Origin: a virus
Lineage: Duplodnaviria; Heunggongvirae; Uroviricota; Caudoviricetes
IMG/VR virus record: IMGVR_UViG_2526164669_000031
Length of the DNA stretch: 12,453 nt
Direction: 5' to 3' (one strand)
Of the stretch, positions 1-11,472 are shown piece after piece; position 1 is the stretch's first letter; each line of letters opens with the position of its first letter. Position numbers and translations under genes: made by a program. Below the pieces are notes generated by a model that was given only the letters and a program-made list of their open reading frames with translations, was not told the origin of the DNA and did no database searches.

Positions 1-1260
1 ATGAAGCTCAACGCCAGACAGGTCGAGACCGCAAAGCCAAAAGACAAAACCTACAAAATGGCCGATGGTGGTGGTTTGTATCTTGAGGTTTCGGCCAAAG
101 GTTCCAAATACTGGCGCATGAAATACAGACGTCCCTCTGACAAAAAAGAGGATCGTCTCGCCTTTGGTGTTTGGCCTACTGTGACGCTTGCTCAGGCAAG
201 AGCAAAACGCGATGAAGCTAAAAAGCTTTTAGTACAGGGCATAGACCCAAAAGTCGTACAAAAAGAAGCTCAGGCCGAGAATTCGGGGGCATATACTTTT
301 GAAACTATCGCCCGAGAATGGCATGCCAGTAACAAGCGCTGGAGTGAAGACCATCGAGCGCGCGTTCTTCGCTATCTTGAGCTTTATATCTTCCCTCATA
401 TCGGTTCGTCCGACATTCGGCAGCTTAAAACCAGCCACCTGTTAGCCCCGATTAAAAAAGTTGATGCCAGTGGCAAACACGATGTCGCTCAGCGCCTGCA
501 ACAGCGCGTCACAGCCATTATGCGTTATGCCGTACAGAACGATTACATCGACTCAAATCCAGCCAGCGATATGGCTGGTGCACTATCGACAACCAAAGCG
601 CGCCATTATCCTGCTTTACCTTCTAGCCGGTTCCCTGAGTTTCTTGCACGTCTTGCTGCATATCGTGGTCGCGTAATGACGCGGATTGCGGTTGAGCTTT
701 CCTTACTAACTTTTGTGCGTTCCAGTGAGTTACGTTTCGCGCGTTGGGATGAGTTTGATTTCGATAAATCTCTCTGGCGAGTACCTGCAAAACGAGAAGA
801 AATTAAAGGAGTGCGTTATTCGTACCGTGGCATGAAGATGAAAGAAGAGCATATCGTTCCGCTTAGTCGGCAAGCGATGATTTTGCTAAACCAGTTAAAG
901 CAGATTAGTGGTGATAAAGAACTGCTTTTTCCGGGGGATCATGACGCAACTAAGGTTATGAGTGAAAATACAGTAAATAGCGCATTGCGTGCGATGGGCT
1001 ATGACACGAAAACCGAAGTTTGCGGGCACGGGTTTAGAACGATGGCGCGTGGAGCATTAGGGGAATCAGGCTTATGGAGTGATGATGCGATTGAACGTCA
1101 GCTAAGTCACTCAGAACGTAATAATGTACGTGCTGCTTATATTCATACATCTGAGCATTTAGACGAAAGGCGTTTAATGATACAGTGGTGGGCAGATTAT
1201 TTAGATAGAAATAAGAAAGAAAGTATTACACCATATGATTTTGCTAGACAACTTAAATAG
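1..1260 (+). CDS. int: Tyrosine recombinase, P4-type integrase
   Basis: 419-aa ORF. The N-terminus (AKPKDKTYKMADGGGLYLEV...KYWRMKYR) is typical of P4-family integrase arm-binding domains. The C-terminus has HGFR and RAAYIH motifs consistent with the tyrosine recombinase catalytic H-x-x-R and Y. ATG at position 1, stop TAG at 1258-1260. Confidence 0.9.
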   Translation: MKLNARQVETAKPKDKTYKMADGGGLYLEVSAKGSKYWRMKYRRPSDKKEDRLAFGVWPTVTLAQARAKRDEAKKLLVQGIDPKVVQKEAQAENSGAYTFETIAREWHASNKRWSEDHRARVLRYLELYIFPHIGSSDIRQLKTSHLLAPIKKVDASGKHDVAQRLQQRVTAIMRYAVQNDYIDSNPASDMAGALSTTKARHYPALPSSRFPEFLARLAAYRGRVMTRIAVELSLLTFVRSSELRFARWDEFDFDKSLWRVPAKREEIKGVRYSYRGMKMKEEHIVPLSRQAMILLNQLKQISGDKELLFPGDHDATKVMSENTVNSALRAMGYDTKTEVCGHGFRTMARGALGESGLWSDDAIERQLSHSERNNVRAAYIHTSEHLDERRLMIQWWADYLDRNKKESITPYDFARQLK

Positions 1261-1314: not shown

Positions 1315-1899
1315 CTAATCATTCACATCAAGAGTTAAGAGTGCGTGCATTCTTTTAACAATCATAATGATATTCAAAATTAAATGTACGCAAACATATA
1401 TTATGAGTGGGCATAAAAAATAGTATAACACATTTAATTTTAGAGTTGTGTTTATTATGCTGACATAATATTCATGTGTTTTGCCGTAAAAGAATCCTGA
1501 TTGATTGACAGGAAACAGTGATACTATAAAACACAACACGACTAACAAAACTCCACATAAAATTGAATAACAAATGTTATAATAAAGTTCAGTGAGTAAT
1601 GCTTTCTTTGATTCATAGAATGTATCAATATCTTTTCTTTGTCTTATTTTTGATTCTTGATCATATACTAAAACAAGAACGCTAAGCAGTAATGCTGTTA
1701 GTATTGCACTGAAATTAACTAATAATGATATTAAATCTTTTGTTATACCACTTCCTAGGAGTGAGAATGCGGCAGAAATAATAAATGGTAGTATTATGAA
1801 TGTAAATATATCCCATAAACTGATCTTATTAGTGTCAGCATTTTTTAAAGTTCTGAAGTGGCCTATAAGAACTTCGCATATATTTATCTTTGAACTCAT
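1315..1899 (-). CDS. Hypothetical integral membrane protein (194 aa, about 4 predicted TM helices); second gene of the AT-rich cargo cassette
   Basis: Four hydrophobic segments of about 20-25 aa (approx. residues 28-50, 56-78, 105-128, 155-180) separated by charged loops. The ATG at 1899..1897 overlaps the upstream gene's stop as TAATG. An SD-like AAGGAGAG lies 5-6 nt upstream. Stop TAG at 1317..1315. Visibly AT-rich relative to the P4 backbone. Confidence 0.7.
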   Translation of the reverse strand: MSSKINICEVLIGHFRTLKNADTNKISLWDIFTFIILPFIISAAFSLLGSGITKDLISLLVNFSAILTALLLSVLVLVYDQESKIRQRKDIDTFYESKKALLTELYYNICYSILCGVLLVVLCFIVSLFPVNQSGFFYGKTHEYYVSIINTTLKLNVLYYFLCPLIIYVCVHLILNIIMIVKRMHALLTLDVND

Positions 1900-2825
1900 T
1901 ACGCTCTCCTTATAGTAACACCACGATATAACAACTGTATATATTCCATGATAATAACATCAACAAAATTATTTAGTGATGCTATTTCCGGCATGCCATC
2001 ATAAAAAACAACTTGTTCTTCATCAAATAAAATTTCACATACAGCTCCCCTTGCTGTTGTTCCAATATGAAAAGTTCTTTTTCTGCCATTATCTAATTCA
2101 ACAACTGTTTTTACTGTTTCTCCATATTCTTTAAGGACTTCAACGAGTTGATATTGCTCCGAGCCTCTGGAGAAATAGTCTCGAAGTCTTCCAAGTCCTG
2201 CATTTCGAGGCGGTTTGATAATTAATTCTTGCTCGTTATGGCCTAGCTTTTTGGCTTGTTCAGCTACATCTGTAATGCCATGGAATTTAGTTACCTTGAT
2301 TTCTTTGGTAATGGCATCCATCCATTTTTCAATCGCTTTATCATACGCCAGAGGGTTCATTTGAATCACTAAGTTGGTAATCCTCTTGAAATAATCTGAA
2401 AACAATCTCATAAAAAGAGTTTTTATACCATCACCTCTATAGGTATGTAAAAACGCCATGCCTTCATTTACATCTCTAGGAATATAAAAATGTATGTAAT
2501 ATCTAATTATTTCAGCATTGTTTTTTGTCTTTTCGAAGTCTACATCGCCAGTTTCAATGTTTATTATGTCGGTCTTTGTTCCGTAATATCCAGACTCGAA
2601 CCATCCATATATTTCTCGATTGTTGTTATCGCGTGTAATCTCATTAAAACGAAAAACTTGTTTGGTTTCTTCAGAAAGGATATATTCTTCATTATACTGC
2701 TTAATAAATTCATCGAGTATATCAAGTAAATCATGTTCTCTGATGTTACTCAGTGCTGAATAACGTTGTTCTTTGGCTGCGTTCGGATTGTAGCAGCGGA
2801 AAAGATACGGTGCTAAAGCGTGCAT
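1899..2825 (-). CDS. Hypothetical soluble protein (308 aa), first gene of the AT-rich cargo cassette; function unknown
   Basis: Long uninterrupted ORF in an AT-rich region where random ORFs are rare. Strong SD (AAGGAGAT) 5-6 nt upstream of the ATG at 2825. Translationally coupled to the downstream membrane-protein gene. I see no Walker A or other clear catalytic motif. Confidence 0.75.
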   Translation of the reverse strand: MHALAPYLFRCYNPNAAKEQRYSALSNIREHDLLDILDEFIKQYNEEYILSEETKQVFRFNEITRDNNNREIYGWFESGYYGTKTDIINIETGDVDFEKTKNNAEIIRYYIHFYIPRDVNEGMAFLHTYRGDGIKTLFMRLFSDYFKRITNLVIQMNPLAYDKAIEKWMDAITKEIKVTKFHGITDVAEQAKKLGHNEQELIIKPPRNAGLGRLRDYFSRGSEQYQLVEVLKEYGETVKTVVELDNGRKRTFHIGTTARGAVCEILFDEEQVVFYDGMPEIASLNNFVDVIIMEYIQLLYRGVTIRRA

Positions 2826-3059
2826 TGTTATCTCCTTTTTTAATGGAGATTAGCAACTTATCACTATAAGATCAACGAACGTTCAATATGGAAAGGGATA
2901 ATTCTGCTTGGTATTTTTCTTTTAATAATATTGGGGTGCTTTAGTGCGATATTTTGATGATTAGTGTGTGTTCGGCAGTAGAAGCTATCCATAGGCAGTG
3001 ATGTTTCTGCATATAGAATGTTTTAATTATCAAACACATAATTTTCGATTGCGCGCGCA

Positions 3060-3078
3060 GTGCTTTCCCCGCCTCGCC
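3060..3078. other. cos site: P2/P4-type 19-nt cohesive-end sequence
   Basis: GTGCTTTCCCCGCCTCGCC at 3060-3078 is the exact reverse complement of the P2/P4 cohesive end GGCGAGGCGGGGAAAGCAC as I recall it. It is followed by a GC-rich hairpin (CCGCCC...GGGCGG, 3078-3097) and a T-run. Confidence 0.7.
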
Positions 3079-3180
3079 CGCCCGCTTTGCAGGGCGGTTT
3101 TAATGCAGTTGCACAGTCACGCTCAGGCTGCGCCGGGAATGGCGCGGTCTGCAGAGAATGAGGCAGGAAAACGCATGCAA

Positions 3181-3242: not shown

Positions 3243-3815
3243 TTACACAGACTGACGTGATGCCAGTTGCGCACTTTTACGCGAAAAAATCATGTTCTGC
3301 GCAGGAGTGAATTTTTCACGGCTGTCATCCACCGAAGCCGCGTCAGGCCTGAATCCGATGGTCGTTAAAATGTCGCTATCCTGTGCGGAATAATTAATTT
3401 TTTCCCCCTTCGCAAGCCAGGACAGAAGGGCTTCACGCAGGGCATCTGTGGCACGCTGTATGGCACAGTTTCGGGCAATGGCCGTCAGCTCACTGTAGCC
3501 CATCAGCTCCGCTGCCAGTGCCGCCGCCAGTGCTGTGCCGTGCTGCTGCATAAAATCATTCAGCCGGTCGCGGATGCTGATGTGCTGAACGGCTTCATGC
3601 GAACGAATATAACGACCGGCGGCCTGATTCACCTGCCATTTTCTGACTTCGATAATATTGCGTAATTCGTCCAGGCGACTGACGTTTCTGCCTTCTCCTG
3701 ACAGAAGCCGCAGATATTCCTGTTCGGCCGCAGCCAGCTCATTTTTGCGTTGCAGCCATGCTGCTTTGTTATTCTGACAGGTGTCAAAGGCCTGCTGTAA
3801 GGCTGTGCTTTCCAT
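3243..3815 (-). CDS. psu: Psu (polarity suppression / capsid decoration protein), P4-like
   Basis: 190 aa, the length I recall for P4 Psu. Position is immediately downstream of delta in the sid-delta-psu operon. ATG at 3815..3813. Confidence 0.85.
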   Translation of the reverse strand: MESTALQQAFDTCQNNKAAWLQRKNELAAAEQEYLRLLSGEGRNVSRLDELRNIIEVRKWQVNQAAGRYIRSHEAVQHISIRDRLNDFMQQHGTALAAALAAELMGYSELTAIARNCAIQRATDALREALLSWLAKGEKINYSAQDSDILTTIGFRPDAASVDDSREKFTPAQNMIFSRKSAQLASRQSV

Positions 3816-3888: not shown

Positions 3889-4389
3889 TCATTCCAGACG
3901 CAGCGAATATGATTGTGTTTTTAACCGTACTGGCGGCAGTTCCTGTTTTTCATGCAGGCGTTCTGCCAGTTCGTCCGGCGTGACCGGGCGGACAATGAAG
4001 CGGGTGATGGTCTGAAGCGTTTTAAACACCAGACCACAGCCCGGATCCGTGCACACATAAAAACGCTCGGTGACTTCCTGAGACAGACGCCGCGATGTTC
4101 TTGACAGTGCAAGGCCTTTACATCTCCGACAACAATATCCGGTAACAAGCATTCTTTTCGGCCGTTTCATACTGCCGGAGGCCGACGTCAGTGAATCGCG
4201 GTATCTCTGTTTGCCTGAAATGTATTCCATTCCTGAATCTTTACTGTCAGAGAAAAAGCTTTCACTCGCTTCAAATGTCGCAGAGCAATAAATATTCCGG
4301 CACTGTGCAATCATTATCTTGGTGCCATCGTCCATGAAATGTGCGCGACGGGTGTGAGCAACATGTCCACACGACGGGCAGTAAATCAT
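3889..4389 (-). CDS. delta: Delta, late-gene transcriptional activator (tandem Ogr-like zinc-finger domains)
   Basis: 166 aa. Two Cys4 zinc-finger modules are visible (CPSCG...CRNIYC and CCRRC...CTDPGCG). The ATG overlaps the sid stop as ATGA at 4386-4389. Confidence 0.9.
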   Translation of the reverse strand: MIYCPSCGHVAHTRRAHFMDDGTKIMIAQCRNIYCSATFEASESFFSDSKDSGMEYISGKQRYRDSLTSASGSMKRPKRMLVTGYCCRRCKGLALSRTSRRLSQEVTERFYVCTDPGCGLVFKTLQTITRFIVRPVTPDELAERLHEKQELPPVRLKTQSYSLRLE

Positions 4390-5120
4390 GACAGCAGTCC
4401 TCTGGCCTTAAGCTCTGCTCCCTGCTGGTCTATTTTGTCCTGCCACACCTTGCGCTGTGCCGGTGTGCCTGCCACCTCATAATCCATGTGCGGGAGTGTT
4501 GCCGCTGACAGTCCGGCCAGCCGGAGAACCGGCTCGCCGGTGAGGCTGATTTGCATCTGTTTAATTTTCTGTTCCAGCGATGATTTCACCTGCTGCATGA
4601 CAGCCTTATCGGGTGCGACGTAGCCCTGATGGCCGGTGGTGTTGGCGAGCGGATTTTCCTGTACCAGGATTCTCAGATGCATTGCCCGGACAAGCGCCTC
4701 ACAGGTTTCATTCAGGGCGTGTTCCAGCTCATGCTCTGCATACAGACTCAGAAGGTGATGATGTGCCTTCCGGTAGGCGGTGGCCGTGCTGTCACACGCC
4801 CCTTTCAGGCGTTCACGTTCGAAATTCAGCACCACGGCCAGATTGTCATATTCCTGTACCAGCTCCCGGCGTGCCACGCGCTCAATGTGGCGCTGTTTCA
4901 GCTCGTCGCTCAGGACACCACCGGCTGCACGAAAGGCCGTGCGCCAGTCGTCAGCGTCATTTCCGTCGGCCTGCGCCAGCGCATTTTTTTCCTGCTCTGC
5001 CCGTTCAATGGCCGTGACGGTCTCATCCATCAGGCGGGCGTTCTCAAGGTGGGCGGCTCTGGCCTTTTCCAGTTGTGCCAGTGCGGGTTGCAGATATTCA
5101 GGGATGGTGTTGTCAGACAT
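4386..5120 (-). CDS. sid: Sid (capsid size determination external scaffold), P4-like
   Basis: The track ORF 4386..5138 begins with a GTG. The in-frame ATG at 5120..5118 (MSDNTIPEYLQ...) gives 244 aa, the recalled P4 Sid length, and has a GAGGAG SD 7 nt upstream. The protein is coiled-coil rich and is the first gene downstream of the late-promoter motifs. Confidence 0.85.
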   Translation of the reverse strand: MSDNTIPEYLQPALAQLEKARAAHLENARLMDETVTAIERAEQEKNALAQADGNDADDWRTAFRAAGGVLSDELKQRHIERVARRELVQEYDNLAVVLNFERERLKGACDSTATAYRKAHHHLLSLYAEHELEHALNETCEALVRAMHLRILVQENPLANTTGHQGYVAPDKAVMQQVKSSLEQKIKQMQISLTGEPVLRLAGLSAATLPHMDYEVAGTPAQRKVWQDKIDQQGAELKARGLLS

Positions 5121-5154
5121 TTTCCGGCTCCTCGTCACTTCAGGTTAAGAAAAT

Positions 5155-5671: not shown

Positions 5672-5938
5672 ATGCAAGCTGTTTTTTCTTCCCCGTCTCC
5701 CGCCCCTGTTACGCCACTGATGCCGCTGCCGGACATCACGCAGGAGCGTTTTTTACGTCTGCCGGAAGTGATGCACCTGTGCGGCCTGTCACGCTCGACC
5801 ATCTATGAACTCATCCGTAAGGGGGAATTTCCGCCGCAGGTGAGTCTTGGCGGTAAAAATGTGGCCTGGCTGCACTCTGAAGTCACCGCATGGATGGCCG
5901 GACGCATTGCCGGACGCAAACGGGGGTACGACGCATGA
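5672..5938 (+). CDS. vis: AlpA/Vis-family small DNA-binding protein (excisionase-like late regulator)
   Basis: 88 aa. The C-terminal two-thirds ([47 protein letters not shown]) is a typical AlpA-family helix-turn-helix. GAGG SD 7 nt upstream of the ATG at 5672. An alternative in-frame start at 5720 would give 72 aa. Confidence 0.8.
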
Positions 5939-6525: not shown

Positions 6526-6805
6526 TAAAAAAGCCCCTCAGACCGTCTCAGCGCGTCATGACGCCCGTGAACACCTCAGCATTGAGGCTTACCATAAGCT
6601 CAACCGCGCCAGCGCCGTATCCCGGTTTGTTGGGGGTGATTTGATTCACCGTGAACTCTCAGGCCTGCATCAGCTCTACATTCCGCATATTTTCAGCTAC
6701 CTGAATGAAGATATTGATTTTGTGCTGAATGAGCTGAAAGCCAAAGGCCTGTGCCGCGATTTTCTCGCCCAGCAGAAAGACCGGGGAGACAGGACGCATG
6801 TTTGA
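6518..6805 (+). CDS. Epsilon-like protein (candidate helper-prophage derepression factor), 95 aa from a GTG start
   Basis: GTG at 6518 with GGAGG 6 nt upstream gives 95 aa, the length I recall for P4 epsilon. The track ORF begins at an upstream GTG (6278) in the same frame. The stop overlaps the next gene's ATG (ATGTTTGA at 6798-6805). Confidence 0.5.
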
Positions 6806-7253
6806 TTTTCCCCAGCCCGGTGAGATTTACCGTTCTGCCGGTTTTCCCGATGTGGCCGTGGTCGGCATTCTGGAAGACGGTATTCCGTGGGAAATGCCGT
6901 ACCGCTGCCCGGACATTGTCTGGAACCCGTACCGCCGTAAATTCAGTATCCTTGTGCGTATCCTCGATGACGGGCGCACCACAGACATCCCGCTGGGGCG
7001 TTTTCTGCGGGAATTTACCTGTGACCGTCCTGACCTGTTTAAACGCAGCCCCGTAAACCGGCATGCGGTACTGAAAGAAATGGCCGGAGACCCGGAATTA
7101 CAGAAATGGCGGGAGAAATATCTGGATATTTACCCGCAGGACCCTGTTCCGGTCAGCCGGGCGGCACCGGTGGCGCGGGAATGGCGGGAAATTCCCCGCA
7201 CGGAGCCTGACCCGGAAATCACCCCGGATAACAGTTACCGCAATTATCTGTAA
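6798..7253 (+). CDS. Hypothetical protein, P4 orf151-like
   Basis: 151 aa, SD GGGGAGA upstream, translationally coupled to the upstream gene, and at the position of orf151 in the P4 left operon. Confidence 0.7.
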   Translation: MFDFPQPGEIYRSAGFPDVAVVGILEDGIPWEMPYRCPDIVWNPYRRKFSILVRILDDGRTTDIPLGRFLREFTCDRPDLFKRSPVNRHAVLKEMAGDPELQKWREKYLDIYPQDPVPVSRAAPVAREWREIPRTEPDPEITPDNSYRNYL

Positions 7254-7388: not shown

Positions 7389-7709
7389 ATGAAAACACCC
7401 TTACCGCCCGTCTTACGCGCTGCCCTTTACCGTCGCGCTGTCGCCTGTGCCTGGCTGACCGTGTGCGAACGTCAGCACCGCTACCCGCATCTCACCCTTG
7501 AGTCACTGGAGGCGGCCATCGCCGCTGAGCTGGAAGGCTTTTATCTGCGCCAGCACGGTGAGGAAAAAGGGCGTCAGATAGCCTGTGCCCTGCTGGAAGA
7601 TTTAATGGAATCCGGCCCCCTGAAGGCCGCGCCGTCGCTGTCCTTTCTCGGGCTGGTTGTGATGGATGAACTCTGTGCCCGTCACATAAAAGCGCCGGTA
7701 CTGCACTGA
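7389..7709 (+). CDS. Hypothetical protein, 106 aa (P4 orf106-like)
   Basis: ATG at 7389 with GGGAGG SD (7375-7380). Ends 15 nt before the alpha gene. Confidence 0.65.
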
Positions 7710-7723
7710 AGGAGAACAACACC

Positions 7724-10057
7724 ATGAAAATGAACGTAACTGCCACCGTCAGCCATGCGCTCGGCCACTGGCCGCGTATTCTCCCGTCGCTGGGGATTCA
7801 GGTGCTGAAGAACCGTCATCAGCCCTGTCCGGTCTGTGGCGGAAGTGACCGCTTCCGTTTTGATGACAGGGAGGGGCGCGGCACCTGGTACTGCAATCAG
7901 TGTGGTGCCGGTGACGGCCTGAAACTGGTTGAAAAGGTGTTTGGTGTTTCCCCGTCCGACGCGGCCGCAAAGGTGGCTGCCGTGACCGGCTGCCTGCCCC
8001 CGGCTGACCCGGCAGTGACGGCCGCCGCCGGTGCTGAAACAGAAGCCGCCCGGAAGAACGCCGCCGCACTGGCACAAACCCTGATGGCGAAAACCCGTCC
8101 CGGAACCGGTAACGCCTACCTGACCCGCAAGGGCTTTCCCGGCCGGGAATGCCGGATGCTGACCGGCACACACAGAGCCGGTGGCGTGAGCTGGCGCGCC
8201 GGTGACCTTGTGGTGCCACTGTATGACGACAGCGGCGAACTGGTTAACCTTCAGTTAATCAGTGCTGACGGCCGTAAGCGCACCCTGAAAGGCGGACAGG
8301 TCAGGGGCACCTGTCACACCCTTGAAGGACAGAATCAGGCCGGAAAACGTCTGTGGATAGCGGAGGGATATGCGACCGCACTTACCGTACATCACCTGAC
8401 CGGGGAAACGGTGATGGTGGCGCTTTCTTCCGTGAACCTCCTTTCTCTGGCCAGCCTTGCCCGGCAGAAGCACCCCGCCTGTCAGATTGTCCTTGCTGCT
8501 GACCGTGACCTCAGCGGTGACGGCCAGAAAAAAGCCGCCGCAGCCGCAGATGCGTGTGAAGGTGTTGTTGCCCTGCCACCGGTCTTCGGTGACTGGAATG
8601 ATGCCTTCACGCAGTACGGCGGGGAGGCCACCCGTAAGGCCATTTATGATGCCATCCGGCCACCGGCTGAAAGCCCGTTCGACACCATGAGCGAAGCGGA
8701 GTTTTCCGCCATGAGTACCAGCGAAAAGGCCATGCGTATCTATGAGCATTACGGCGAGGCGCTCGCGGTCGATGCCAACGGCCAGCTTCTGTCCCGCTAT
8801 GAAAATGGTGTCTGGAAGGTGCTGCCGCCACAGGACTTTGCCCGGGATGTGGCCGGGCTGTTTCAGCGGCTGCGTGCGCCGTTCTCCTCCGGGAAGGTGG
8901 CCTCCGTGGTGGACACCCTGAAGCTGATTATTCCGCAACAGGAAGCCCCCTCCCGCCGCCTGATTGGCTTTCGTAACGGCGTGCTCGACACGCAGAACGG
9001 TACGTTCCACCCGCACAGTCCGTCACACTGGATGCGCACCCTGTGCGATGTGGATTTCACCCCGCCGGTGGAAGGGGAAACGCTGGAAACCCACGCCCCC
9101 GCGTTCTGGCGCTGGCTTGACCGTGCTGCCGGTGGTCGTGCGGAAAAACGCGACGTGATTCTGGCCGCACTGTTTATGGTGCTGGCAAACCGCTACGACT
9201 GGCAGCTCTTTCTGGAGGTGACCGGTCCCGGCGGCAGCGGCAAAAGTATCATGGCCGAAATAGCCACCCTGCTGGCCGGGGAGGATAACGCCACGTCGGC
9301 CACCATCGAGACGCTGGAATCCCCGCGTGAACGTGCCGCGTTAACTGGCTTCTCACTGATACGCCTGCCGGACCAGGAAAAATGGAGCGGCGACGGTGCC
9401 GGACTCAAGGCCATCACCGGCGGCGATGCGGTGTCCGTTGACCCGAAATACCGGGATGCGTACTCCACGCACATCCCGGCGGTGATTCTGGCCGTGAACA
9501 ATAACCCGATGCGCTTCACCGACCGCAGCGGCGGCGTGTCACGCCGGCGGGTGATTATTCACTTCCCGGAACAGATAGCCCCGCAGGAGCGCGACCCGCA
9601 GCTTAAGGACAAAATCACCCGCGAGCTGGCGGTCATCGTGCGTCACCTGATGCAGAAATTCAGCGACCCGATGCTCGCCCGGTCACTGCTTCAGTCCCAG
9701 CAGAACTCAGACGAGGCACGGAACATCAAACGGGATGCCGACCCGACGTTTGATTTTATCGGCTATCTGGAAACCCTGCCGCAGACCAGCGGCATGTATA
9801 TGGGGAACGCCAGTATCATCCCGCGTAATTACCGTAAATACCTCTATCACGCCTATCTGGCCTACATGGAGGCAAACGGCTACCGGAATGTACTCAGTCT
9901 GAAAATGTTCGGGCTGGGGCTGCCGGTGATGCTGAAGGAATACGGACTGAATTACGAGAAGCGCCATACCAAACAGGGGATACAGACCAACCTGACGCTG
10001 AAAGAGGAAAGCTACGGCGACTGGCTGCCAAAATGTGACGACCCTGCAACAACCTGA
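7724..10057 (+). CDS. alpha: Alpha protein: primase-helicase with origin-binding domain
   Basis: 777 aa, the recalled length of P4 alpha. N-terminal zinc-binding primase motif (CPVCGGSDRFRFDDREGRGTWYCNQCGAG), a TOPRIM-like segment (IAEGYATAL...VLAADRD) and a Walker A motif (GPGGSGKS, nt about 9226-9249). SD GAAGGAGA at 7708-7715. Confidence 0.95.
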   Translation: MKMNVTATVSHALGHWPRILPSLGIQVLKNRHQPCPVCGGSDRFRFDDREGRGTWYCNQCGAGDGLKLVEKVFGVSPSDAAAKVAAVTGCLPPADPAVTAAAGAETEAARKNAAALAQTLMAKTRPGTGNAYLTRKGFPGRECRMLTGTHRAGGVSWRAGDLVVPLYDDSGELVNLQLISADGRKRTLKGGQVRGTCHTLEGQNQAGKRLWIAEGYATALTVHHLTGETVMVALSSVNLLSLASLARQKHPACQIVLAADRDLSGDGQKKAAAAADACEGVVALPPVFGDWNDAFTQYGGEATRKAIYDAIRPPAESPFDTMSEAEFSAMSTSEKAMRIYEHYGEALAVDANGQLLSRYENGVWKVLPPQDFARDVAGLFQRLRAPFSSGKVASVVDTLKLIIPQQEAPSRRLIGFRNGVLDTQNGTFHPHSPSHWMRTLCDVDFTPPVEGETLETHAPAFWRWLDRAAGGRAEKRDVILAALFMVLANRYDWQLFLEVTGPGGSGKSIMAEIATLLAGEDNATSATIETLESPRERAALTGFSLIRLPDQEKWSGDGAGLKAITGGDAVSVDPKYRDAYSTHIPAVILAVNNNPMRFTDRSGGVSRRRVIIHFPEQIAPQERDPQLKDKITRELAVIVRHLMQKFSDPMLARSLLQSQQNSDEARNIKRDADPTFDFIGYLETLPQTSGMYMGNASIIPRNYRKYLYHAYLAYMEANGYRNVLSLKMFGLGLPVMLKEYGLNYEKRHTKQGIQTNLTLKEESYGDWLPKCDDPATT

Positions 10058-10088: not shown

Positions 10089-10104
10089 ATCCCTGAATTC
10101 CCCG

Positions 10105-10406
10105 CAGGTGAACAATCCACTGTTCACCCTTCACCGTATATTCACCCGTTATCACACTGAAATTAAAAGAGAAAAATGAAAGGTGAACAGTGTGAACAAT
10201 CAAATCAAAAAAAACTTTTTTTCTCCCTGTGTGATTTTCAGTGCAGGGGACTAATCGCCGGTATGAGTCACACCGGCAGAATGCCGGAGGTGAAGAATCG
10301 AATGTTCACCCTTCACCCATTATTCACCACCTATCACTCTGAAATAAAAGGAGAAAACAGAAAGGTGAACAGTGTGAACAGTTCTTTCGAAAAAAAATTT
10401 TTTATG
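10105..10406. repeat. crr-like cis replication region: two direct repeats of about 120 bp, each carrying TGTTCACC-type iterons and ending in an A/T tract
   Basis: Repeat 1 is about 10105-10228 and repeat 2 about 10287-10406. They share GGTGAA..ATGTTCACCCTTCACC...GAAAGGTGAACAGTGTGAACA and a terminal A(7-8)T(6-8) tract. Iterons at 10107, 10121, 10182, 10303 and 10364, with TGTGAACA variants at 10191 and 10373. Confidence 0.75.
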
Positions 10407-10424
10407 TGGATAAAAGATGCACTG

Positions 10425-10451
10425 GTTTGGATCCGAGCTACGGATCCAAAC
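10425..10451. repeat. Perfect palindrome GTTTGGATCCG-AGCTA-CGGATCCAAAC (11-bp arms)
   Basis: Arms at 10425-10435 and 10441-10451 are exact reverse complements. No adjacent U-run. Located between crr and the attR-like sequence. Confidence 0.5.
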
Positions 10452-10594
10452 TTACTGATTAAAAATGATTTAACTTTCCGATTTATTGATGGGCTGAAAA
10501 TAGATTGGTCAGAAAAACAGTGGGGGCACAAAAGGGGGCATATTTCATTGTTGTGTTTTATTATTTGTTTTTTTATCATTAACTTATTTTGATG

Positions 10595-10634
10595 TTTGAG
10601 TCCGGCCTTCGCACCTTCGCACCTTCGCACCATC
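10595..10634 (+). other. attR-like remnant of a tRNA 3' end (T-arm and acceptor end) with a triplicated CCTTCGCAC 9-mer
   Basis: TTTGAGTCCGGCCTTCGCACC...CACCA resembles the T-arm and acceptor end of tRNA-Leu (leuX; recalled 3' end ...GTTCGAGTCCGGCCTTCGGCACCA), the known P4 target. CCTTCGCAC occurs three times in tandem (10606-10632). The sequence is in the same orientation as int. Confidence 0.55.
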
Positions 10635-10647
10635 GGAACATCAATAG

Positions 10648-10667
10648 ACGTCAACGGACGTTTTTTT
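10648..10667 (+). terminator. Small hairpin plus T7 run directly after the tRNA-like fragment (possible native tRNA terminator)
   Basis: ACGTC-AACG-GACGT (10648-10661) followed by TTTTTTT. The stem is only 5 bp. Confidence 0.35.
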
Positions 10668-10833
10668 ATGACTGAAATCCGCGCCACACAAGGCTTTTCG
10701 CTATTTTTCGCTCAACCTAAGTCAACCTACATCAACTTACTGATGTGGATACAGCTACAGCTGCGGCTATATCCCGATTCGATAATGTTTGTACCCACAC
10801 AAAACCCTTGAAAGGCTACAAGGCTGAAATTCT

Positions 10834-11019
10834 CTAAACCATAGAGATGATTTTTATGATCCAGTCTTTCTCTTGTTGAGATAGTTCCAGTTTGCTCACT
10901 CGTGTTAAGAAGGTATTGATCACCTGAACATCCGAATTGGTGAGCCTATTTAATAGAGTGGGTGGTATACCTTTACTAACTATTGCTTTGCGGTGACTTT
11001 CGTAGTTTTTATTACTCAT
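10834..11019 (-). CDS. Short ORF (61 aa) in the AT-rich chromosomal flank; possible gene fragment
   Basis: ORF only. It is in a different frame from the adjacent 77-aa ORF, so the pair may be a decayed gene. No recognisable motif. Confidence 0.2.
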   Translation of the reverse strand: MSNKNYESHRKAIVSKGIPPTLLNRLTNSDVQVINTFLTRVSKLELSQQEKDWIIKIISMV

Positions 11020-11084
11020 TGGTGATCCTCAAATATCATTGTATGGCGGCATTGATCGTTTCCAGCAACCTTTACTTACTCACT

Positions 11085-11318
11085 TCAAACTGCATCCTCG
11101 TAGACTGTTCCACTACAATAATCGAAAAGGCGTGGATGTCCATTCAGGTATCCCGCTAATACGTATAGCAATAACAATGGCTTATGCGGCGCGCGCTGTT
11201 CACCCTTGTGCCAGATTTTTATATTGGCAATTGCCTGCTGTAGCGATTTACTGGAAGCCATTGATATCCCTGGCAGTGAAATAATTGCGATCATGCTCGC
11301 AAATTTTCGGCTGTTCAA
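11085..11318 (-). CDS. Short ORF (77 aa) in the chromosomal flank; possible gene fragment or pseudogene
   Basis: ORF only. It sits downstream of and on the same strand as the nanS-like gene, in an AT-rich stretch. Confidence 0.25.
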   Translation of the reverse strand: MNSRKFASMIAIISLPGISMASSKSLQQAIANIKIWHKGEQRAPHKPLLLLYVLAGYLNGHPRLFDYCSGTVYEDAV

Positions 11319-11472
11319 GCCTGCAAGTGAAGATATATTACTTTGATCTCATTTGTTTTTTTGCTGCCTGTGTACCCTAATTGCCATGCGATGCTGCACC
11401 GACGCTAACCACCGTTTACGCCGGAGGAGTTAAAAGCGTTGATGGATGCGAATAAATCAAATTAATGAACGC

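Follow-up and report, generated by a model that had tools for sequence, protein, structure and literature searches.

A candidate RexAB-type exclusion module in the int-cos interval of a P4-like satellite

What is the role of a compact, AT-rich pair of genes lodged between the integrase gene and the cos site of a phage satellite? We addressed this question for a 12,453-nt stretch of DNA (hereafter the window) from the IMG/VR virus record IMGVR_UViG_2526164669_000031, in which two genes, here called A and B, occupy the minus strand next to the integrase gene int. On balance, we favour the interpretation that this cassette is a sequence-divergent two-component phage-exclusion module of the RexAB type, which a P4-like satellite holds in its psu/cos-int hotspot as exchangeable cargo. 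It is most likely a new member of the RexAB-type two-component exclusion systems and not a new kind of system, and the finding reveals no new principle.

The cassette and its expression signals are arranged as follows (window coordinates).

2825..1899, minus strand: gene A, encoding a cytoplasmic protein of 308 aa, predicted to have a two-domain fold of the RexA/RdgC type (open reading frame and model)
1899..1315, minus strand: gene B, encoding a 194-aa inner-membrane protein with four transmembrane segments (open reading frame, hydropathy and model)
2831-2837, minus strand: Shine-Dalgarno sequence of A, AAGGAGA, 5 nt before the ATG of A
1904-1911, minus strand: Shine-Dalgarno sequence of B, AAGGAGAG, within the 3' end of A and 4 nt before the ATG of B
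2826-3059, minus strand: AT-rich region upstream of A, the expected promoter location (by position only)
1265-1306, no strand assigned: hairpin with a 13-bp stem between B and the convergent int (-18.9 kcal/mol, z -4.46, none of 200 shuffles as stable)

Base 1899 is common to both genes. At the junction the minus strand reads AAGGAGAGCGTAATG, and the TAA of A overlaps the ATG of B in a TAATG at 1897-1901; A and B are thus a translationally coupled operon. An initial annotation, made from the sequence alone, had described a gene for a 308-aa soluble protein and one for a 194-aa protein with four transmembrane segments, joined by this overlap and each preceded by a strong Shine-Dalgarno sequence, and all of these features were confirmed, both genes lying on the minus strand. 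The hairpin downstream of B is a candidate bidirectional terminator that lacks a clean U-run, and it was not picked by a consensus terminator scan. A consensus scan likewise returned no sigma-70-like minus-strand promoter within 2826-3059, and such sites were no commoner across the region than in shuffled sequence.

The position of the cassette was established from its flanks, since a Pfam scan of the window proteins identified the window as a P4-like satellite and the cos sequence could be matched exactly.

1-1260, plus strand: P4-type tyrosine integrase gene int, the left hotspot flank (Pfam Arm-DNA-bind_3, Phage_int_M, Phage_integrase)
3060-3078, minus strand: P2/P4 cos cohesive-end sequence GGCGAGGCGGGGAAAGCAC, the right hotspot border (exact 19-nt match)
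3815..3243, minus strand: psu (polarity suppression / capsid decoration), the right hotspot flank (Pfam Psu, E 9e-87)

The sequence GGCGAGGCGGGGAAAGCAC occurs once in the window, where no occurrence is expected by chance, and it also flanks the hotspot inserts cloned by Rousset 2022 (PMC9122126). This puts the cassette between int and cos, as the initial annotation had it, at the position where P4-like elements carry their variable genes between psu/cos and int. In the same element of E. coli 13E0767, int adjoins a tRNA-Leu gene.

That P4 satellites exchange defence systems at this position, as had also been proposed, is well established: Rousset 2022 described the psu-int interval as a defence hotspot, with 5251 loci in more than 300 arrangements, and found seven of 19 tested systems positive (PMC9122126). 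The cassette studied here is itself part of that catalogue. System 36 of its Table S1B, labelled RexA and RexB and counted 46 times among over 20,000 E. coli genomes, is entered as "similar to lambda RexAB" (PMC9122126); its proteins are identical in sequence to A and B and come from the same hotspot, and Table S1A includes contigs with WP_000543069 and WP_000095574, which are A and B in RefSeq. The identity of the sequences makes the cassette a catalogued Rex-like candidate and not a new kind of module, and the earlier statement that neither protein could be placed in a known family is superseded. Our own reading, arrived at independently, agrees with that of the catalogue. System 36 is not among the P4 constructs that were cloned and tested in that study (PMC9122126). 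A 2026 survey reported protection by six of eight randomly chosen unknown loci of the P4 hotspot; the A/B pair is not among the loci described there.

Protein A has no hydrophobic segment (the maximum Kyte-Doolittle mean over 19 residues is 1.3). It has no meaningful match in Pfam, NCBIfam or PADLOC at E<=1, and belongs to the PHROGs family of unknown function phrog_15676. Its 91 close homologue clusters are all from Gammaproteobacteria and all annotated as hypothetical. At E<=0.001, a profile built from these close homologues reached at least 1353 representatives of 50%-identity clusters, with 786 of them below 1e-10; nearly all family representatives are 300-320 aa long. Neither 10 distant relatives of A nor, subsequently, all 122 members of a broad alignment pointed to a consistent Pfam or PADLOC family. 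Among these 122 diverse members only two positions, G79 and G82, never vary, while Y7, G133 and P279 hardly do. Across the wide family conservation is confined to glycine, proline and tyrosine and includes no polar constellation; this pattern speaks for binding or scaffolding as the role of A and against an enzyme. Some family members are longer, such as P0292 with 505 aa (A region 202-502) and P0213 with 417 aa (A region 111-415); their length implies N-terminal extensions or fusions, and P0292 has no Pfam match.

An AlphaFold2 model of A, built on a 52-sequence alignment, reached a mean predicted local distance difference test (pLDDT) of 81.8 and a predicted template modelling score of 0.75, and the fold closest to it is that of lambda RexA (PDB 8TWQ). 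The model has the split globular domain and dimerisation domain of the RexA/RdgC fold, so that A is predicted to share this two-domain architecture. RdgC, IML3 and CHL4 are counted among the structural relatives of RexA (PMC11077077), which places the model in that fold group and not merely among generic sheet-helix domains. The likeness of the soluble-plus-membrane pair to RexA/RexB, which the initial annotation had remarked on, is thus borne out in that the fold of A comes closest to lambda RexA and a four-helix membrane protein follows it.

Sequence profiles may point in the same direction. When the broad A family (profile A4) was aligned by hhalign with a 24-sequence RexA profile, a weak local match of 109 columns was obtained (score 33.3, P 6.4e-4). 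It joins A 141-248 with RexA 114-236, a stretch that takes in the hinge and the dimerisation domain as well as the last part of the globular domain, and pairs the conserved QMNPL of the family with IEPLM of RexA, in which EPLM is invariant, and IIKPPR with IKPK. The reversed profile scored 16.3, and 40 block-shuffled controls reached at most 29.7, against 33.3 for A4; a narrower profile, A1, gave the same register with P 0.0074. These alignments suggest that A is a distant homologue of RexA, a relationship that is probable but unproven. Searches of the PDB sequences with the A1, A4 and A2 profiles returned nothing credible and did not reach RexA.

Protein B carries four hydrophobic segments by hydropathy, and its AlphaFold2 model (pLDDT 80) places helices at 28-48, 54-87, 95-127 and 157-192. 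Lysine and arginine are enriched at the N-terminus and in the loop 80-100, so that this inner-membrane protein probably has both termini inside. It matches nothing in Pfam, PADLOC or NCBIfam (E<=1) or in the PDB, and belongs to phrog_15250, a further PHROGs family of unknown function. Across its 308 homologue clusters the N-terminus MSSKIN is almost invariant, and the second helix (SLLVNFxAIxTALLLSVLVLVYDQ) and the C-terminus (MIVKRMHxLL) carry near-invariant motifs. A Foldseek search of BFVD with the B model gave no significant match; the best, at E 0.06, was a 172-aa protein of 'Siphoviridae sp. ctylc9', which is also the source of one of the top BFVD matches of A.

The two proteins are strictly co-inherited across a large family. 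We collected 26 loci from one-genome-per-species collections; two of them are cut off by the end of a contig, and two are pseudogenes with frameshifts. In all 24 complete genome loci B comes next after A, in the same orientation and no more than about 10 nt away, and the order and orientation are the same in 22 of 22 IMG/VR viral contigs, which amounts to 46 of 46 complete loci. The four-segment membrane partner is therefore consistently encoded directly downstream, as it is in the window. The pairing extends to a relative sharing only 21% identity with A; the protein encoded next to it matches the B profile at 3e-28. The carriers found are as follows.

P4-like satellites of E. coli and Enterobacter hormaechei: at the psu-int site
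Morganella satellite, P4-like or like a phage-inducible chromosomal island (PICI): after the primase gene
Filamentous (inovirus) prophage of Vibrio cholerae (L039, 3084-11498): at the end of the filamentous element, after zot and beside an RTX toxin gene
Pseudomonas Pf phage PfAC16 (L002, 412-1883): at the end of the filamentous element, adjoining repressor and excisionase genes
Pseudomonas tailed prophage: adjoining int
Alcanivorax: in a small chromosomal islet
Acinetobacter: on a few plasmids
V. cholerae superintegron, GCA_015803835.1 (L047, 4848-8549): A/B pair about 1.3 kb from intIA

In the superintegron intIA adjoins thrS-infC-rpmI-rplT, and one or two small open reading frames separate it from the A/B pair, which identifies the pair as an early integron cassette. 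Among complete E. coli genomes the cassette is present in 7 of 5426, always at the psu-int site and always with at least 99.8% identity. This distribution, with its mobile carriers and variable cargo positions, fits accessory cargo that can be exchanged better than it fits a core regulator. Frameshifted copies were seen in an Alcaligenaceae metagenome-assembled genome (L030, 10001-10919), where A is broken and the frame of B intact, in Psychromonas sp. KJ10-10 (L037, 10001-11474), where both are broken, and in one viral contig (L064, 3673-4220), where A or B is affected.

The base composition of the cassette sets it apart from its surroundings, as had been noted at the outset: the GC fraction is 0.35 in A and 0.284 in B, against 0.46 in int, 0.53 in psu, 0.61 in alpha and 0.56 in the backbone, and at third codon positions it is 0.28 and 0.24, against 0.55-0.71. 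From this the initial annotation had concluded a recent acquisition from a low-GC source. Related cassettes, however, are AT-richer than their own flanks in 22 of 22 loci (L002-L047; median -15 points), with 28-42% GC in hosts of 36-62% GC. Low GC is thus a trait of the A/B family, and it provides no evidence for a recent event in the element of the window, which weakens that conclusion.

How might such a module act? If the cassette works in the manner of lambda RexAB, P. putida RexABpp and Sucellos, A would sense, probably in dimeric form, an infection-specific cue, which could be a DNA-protein intermediate of phage replication or recombination or a phage protein, and would then activate an oligomeric pore or channel made of B. 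Membrane integrity or potential would collapse, growth would stop, and the infecting phage, possibly including helper-type phages, would not complete its cycle. A is thus the proposed sensor or DNA-binding partner and B the proposed effector. Such a course of events has been proposed for lambda Rex and observed for RexABpp and Sucellos. Membrane-protein-dependent growth arrest or membrane damage has been seen for RexABpp (PMC12894663), and the growth-arresting effector is the membrane protein in lambda, RexABpp, Sbash, CarolAnn and Sucellos (PMC12894663; bioRxiv 10.1101/2024.07.02.601686). On these grounds an anti-phage function is proposed for the cassette, and a Rex-type module of this sort would probably be growth-arresting. 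The proposal that it is an uncharacterised anti-phage module accordingly stands in part: the defence hotspot and the likeness to Rex speak for it, the cassette had already been catalogued, and the anti-phage activity is inferred.

Several observations weigh against the assignment to the RexAB type. The fold evidence for A comes from a predicted model, and the hhalign probability for the A family against RexA is 27.7% only. The Pfam families RexA (PF15969) and RexB (PF15968) match neither A, B nor any of the 122 family members, and true RexA homologues all carry PF15969. PADLOC, which the initial annotation had suggested along with HMMER and Foldseek for placing the proteins, matched neither A/B nor the 10 distant relatives of A, and Foldseek searches of the models against BFVD returned only uncharacterised viral proteins, with no lambda RexA or RexB among them. 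A is acidic (isoelectric point 5.6, compared with 8.6 for the basic lambda RexA), so that DNA binding is not assured. For B, hhalign against a five-sequence RexB profile (lambda RexB and four neighbours of RexA homologues) gave P 0.51, with no detectable relation; the likeness of B to RexB is therefore one of kind, a four-segment membrane protein encoded downstream, and not of demonstrable ancestry. Finally, the 'additional tested systems' of Rousset 2022 include three soluble-plus-membrane pairs, pFR86 ('RexAB-like'), pFR81 ('RexA + 4TM') and pFR87 ('HP + 4TMs'), and these three, two of them Rex-like, are absent from the seven validated systems (PMC9122126).

The same evidence can be read in other ways. 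The A/B pair might define a large Rex-like clade of its own, for which Pfam, NCBIfam and PADLOC have no model. Its membrane partner would be unrelated to RexB and possibly recruited independently, and its members would pass among satellites of the P4 type, filamentous phages, tailed prophages and integrons; we regard this stronger claim as a tentative possibility. Such a clade might also act against P2-type helpers or competing satellites. Slightly more doubtful is a reversal of the signalling, of the sort seen in Kiwa-like or Butters-like systems, in which B is the sensor or anchor and A the effector: B would detect phage attachment, DNA entry or membrane stress, or would sequester A, and A would bind incoming phage DNA or block recombination-dependent replication, with no need for membrane collapse. 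Strict pairing of A and B is compatible with either direction, and DNA binding by lambda RexA does not track with exclusion, so that signalling in Rex systems may run either way. A has no match to DUF4868/KwaB, however, and the gene order is opposite to the kwaA-kwaB order that we assume for Kiwa. In mycobacteriophage Butters it is indeed the cytosolic RexA-like protein that acts as effector, kept in check by the membrane protein (PMC12894663), but in the five systems named above the effector is the membrane protein. The acidic character of A acts on both sides here, as it is a point against this reversal and yet, combined with the lack of RexB homology, also keeps it alive. Should it prove true that B senses and an RdgC-fold A clamps DNA, the cassette would be a mechanistic variant of Rex and not a copy.

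Two readings without a primary role in defence appear improbable to us. A translationally coupled, strictly paired operon could be an addiction module of the toxin-antitoxin kind, with B as a membrane toxin and A as its neutraliser, and phage resistance would then be a side effect or absent. Toxin-antitoxin cassettes are common in the V. cholerae superintegron where the pair was found, and gop/beta, the canonical P4 cargo at this site, behaves as such a pair (PMC9122126). However, known antitoxins do not resemble a 308-aa protein with a two-domain RexA-like fold, and here it is the second gene of the operon that would encode the toxin. Rex-like pairs of a comparable sort protect only when both genes are present and show no toxicity at native levels. 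In the frameshifted copies A can be broken with the frame of B intact (L030), or both can be broken (L037). Equally hard to credit is a non-defence modulator of the life cycle of temperate elements or of host physiology, or a B that acts alone as a superinfection-exclusion protein blocking DNA entry. Lambda RexA tunes the CI-Cro lysis-lysogeny switch independently of RexB, lambda RexB is reported to restrain ClpXP-dependent proteolysis, the PfAC16 cassette lies beside a repressor gene, and all carriers found are temperate elements. This idea is countered by the cargo positions of the cassette, which are variable and not conserved regulatory ones, by its rarity in complete E. coli genomes, and by the diversity of its carriers, which are unrelated element types and include an integron cassette with no repressor nearby.

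The remainder of the window has the organisation of a P4-like satellite.

4389..3889, minus strand: Ogr/Delta zinc-finger protein (Pfam)
5672-5938, plus strand: AlpA-type regulator (Pfam)
7389-7709, plus strand: DUF5375 protein (Pfam)
7724-10057, plus strand: primase-helicase (Pfam)

Directly beside cos, at 3078-3097, a GC-rich hairpin, CCGCCCGCTTTGCAGGGCGG, is followed by a T-run and is terminator-like on the plus strand in the consensus scan; the same sequence recurs close to cos in the DNA that Rousset 2022 cloned (PMC9122126). Three open reading frames had no Pfam match: one of 250 aa at the sid position (4386-5138, minus strand; RefSeq name 'glycoprotein 3'), one of 151 aa in the replication/regulation region (6798-7253, plus strand) and one of 77 aa (11085-11318, minus strand). 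The last lies in an AT-rich stretch downstream of the primase gene (10100-11450, GC 0.37-0.43), whose equivalent in RefSeq relatives holds a pseudogene fragment named 'phosphorothioated DNA-binding restriction endonuclease' and an 'HNH endonuclease'; a second defence locus, now decayed, may lie here at the satellite's right end. The 13E0767 copy of the satellite carries an IS21-family insertion sequence, ISEc12 (istA/istB; L001, 20538-22840), between the DUF5375 and primase genes, and the window has none at the equivalent position, about 7710-7724.

Rex has been known for longer than any other abortive-infection system. Only about five Rex-like systems have been examined experimentally, according to a 2026 P. 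putida study (PMC12894663). The present work describes a large, strictly paired family that Pfam, NCBIfam and PADLOC miss and that has spread on at least four kinds of mobile element. Its compact E. coli example, in its native context in a P4-like satellite, would offer a convenient model for sensing by a RexA-fold protein and its coupling to a partner other than RexB, and for asking whether satellites use such modules against helpers or competitors. Profiles for both families would improve the annotation of defence in satellites, inoviruses and integrons.

Among known systems, lambda RexAB (PF15969/PF15968) shares with the cassette its gene order, a soluble protein followed by a four-segment membrane protein encoded downstream. 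Lambda RexA is a basic protein of 279 aa and A an acidic one of 308 aa; lambda RexB has 144 aa and B 194 aa, with no detectable homology between them. The lambda genes lie downstream of cI in the immunity region, whereas A and B lie in a cargo hotspot between int and cos, away from any position downstream of a CI-like repressor gene; the PfAC16 relative does adjoin a repressor gene, but in convergent orientation. With no match to PF15969 or PF15968 at E<=1 and the RexB profile at P 0.51, the cassette is not lambda RexAB in the strict sense. RdgC (PDB 2OWL), a member of the fold group predicted for A, shows no sequence match to it, the Pfam RdgC family included, and is a stand-alone housekeeping protein with no membrane partner, unlike A/B.

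Kiwa resembles the cassette in its sizes, combining a KwaA of about 190 aa with four transmembrane segments and a soluble KwaB (DUF4868) of about 310 aa. It was rejected as an identity, since A, B and the 10 distant relatives of A match neither DUF4868 nor the Kiwa models of PADLOC, and the gene order is opposite to kwaA-kwaB, which we take to be that of Kiwa. Kiwa, too, is present in the P4 hotspot (PMC9122126). The tested P4 constructs are likewise different systems: the sequences of pFR86, pFR81 and pFR87 differ from A and B on reading, and the soluble proteins of pFR86 and pFR81 show no profile-level relation to A (probabilities of 0.5% and 0.2%). Protein 1 of pFR86 is instead related to lambda RexA (70%).

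Two further Rex-like systems also escape recognition by Pfam. RexABpp of P. putida prophage P1 (PP_5643/PP_5644; Sci Rep 2026, PMC12894663) is a proven Pfam-negative Rex-like defence. Its termini, deduced from the published primers, are MHRTATFV... and MLIGQLANP..., compared with MH[AS]xxPY... and MSSKIN... in the A/B family; this mismatch excludes identity and makes RexABpp a separate lineage, and RexApp is tied to RexA at an HHpred probability of 98%, against the hhalign value of 27.7% for the A family. Sucellos (SclA/SclB), a validated two-gene defence from a V. cholerae superintegron cassette, is described as structurally RexAB-like with no Pfam domain match; SclB is a predicted membrane pore, both genes are required, infected cells die or arrest, and the homologues are mostly in Salmonella prophages (bioRxiv 10.1101/2024.07.02.601686). 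The close relatives of A and B do not include the proteins of V. cholerae N16961, there being no V. cholerae cluster of many contigs, and the Vibrio members in the cluster look-up are non-pandemic only. Compared by description only, Sucellos and the A/B family nevertheless have in common that both are carried in V. cholerae superintegrons.

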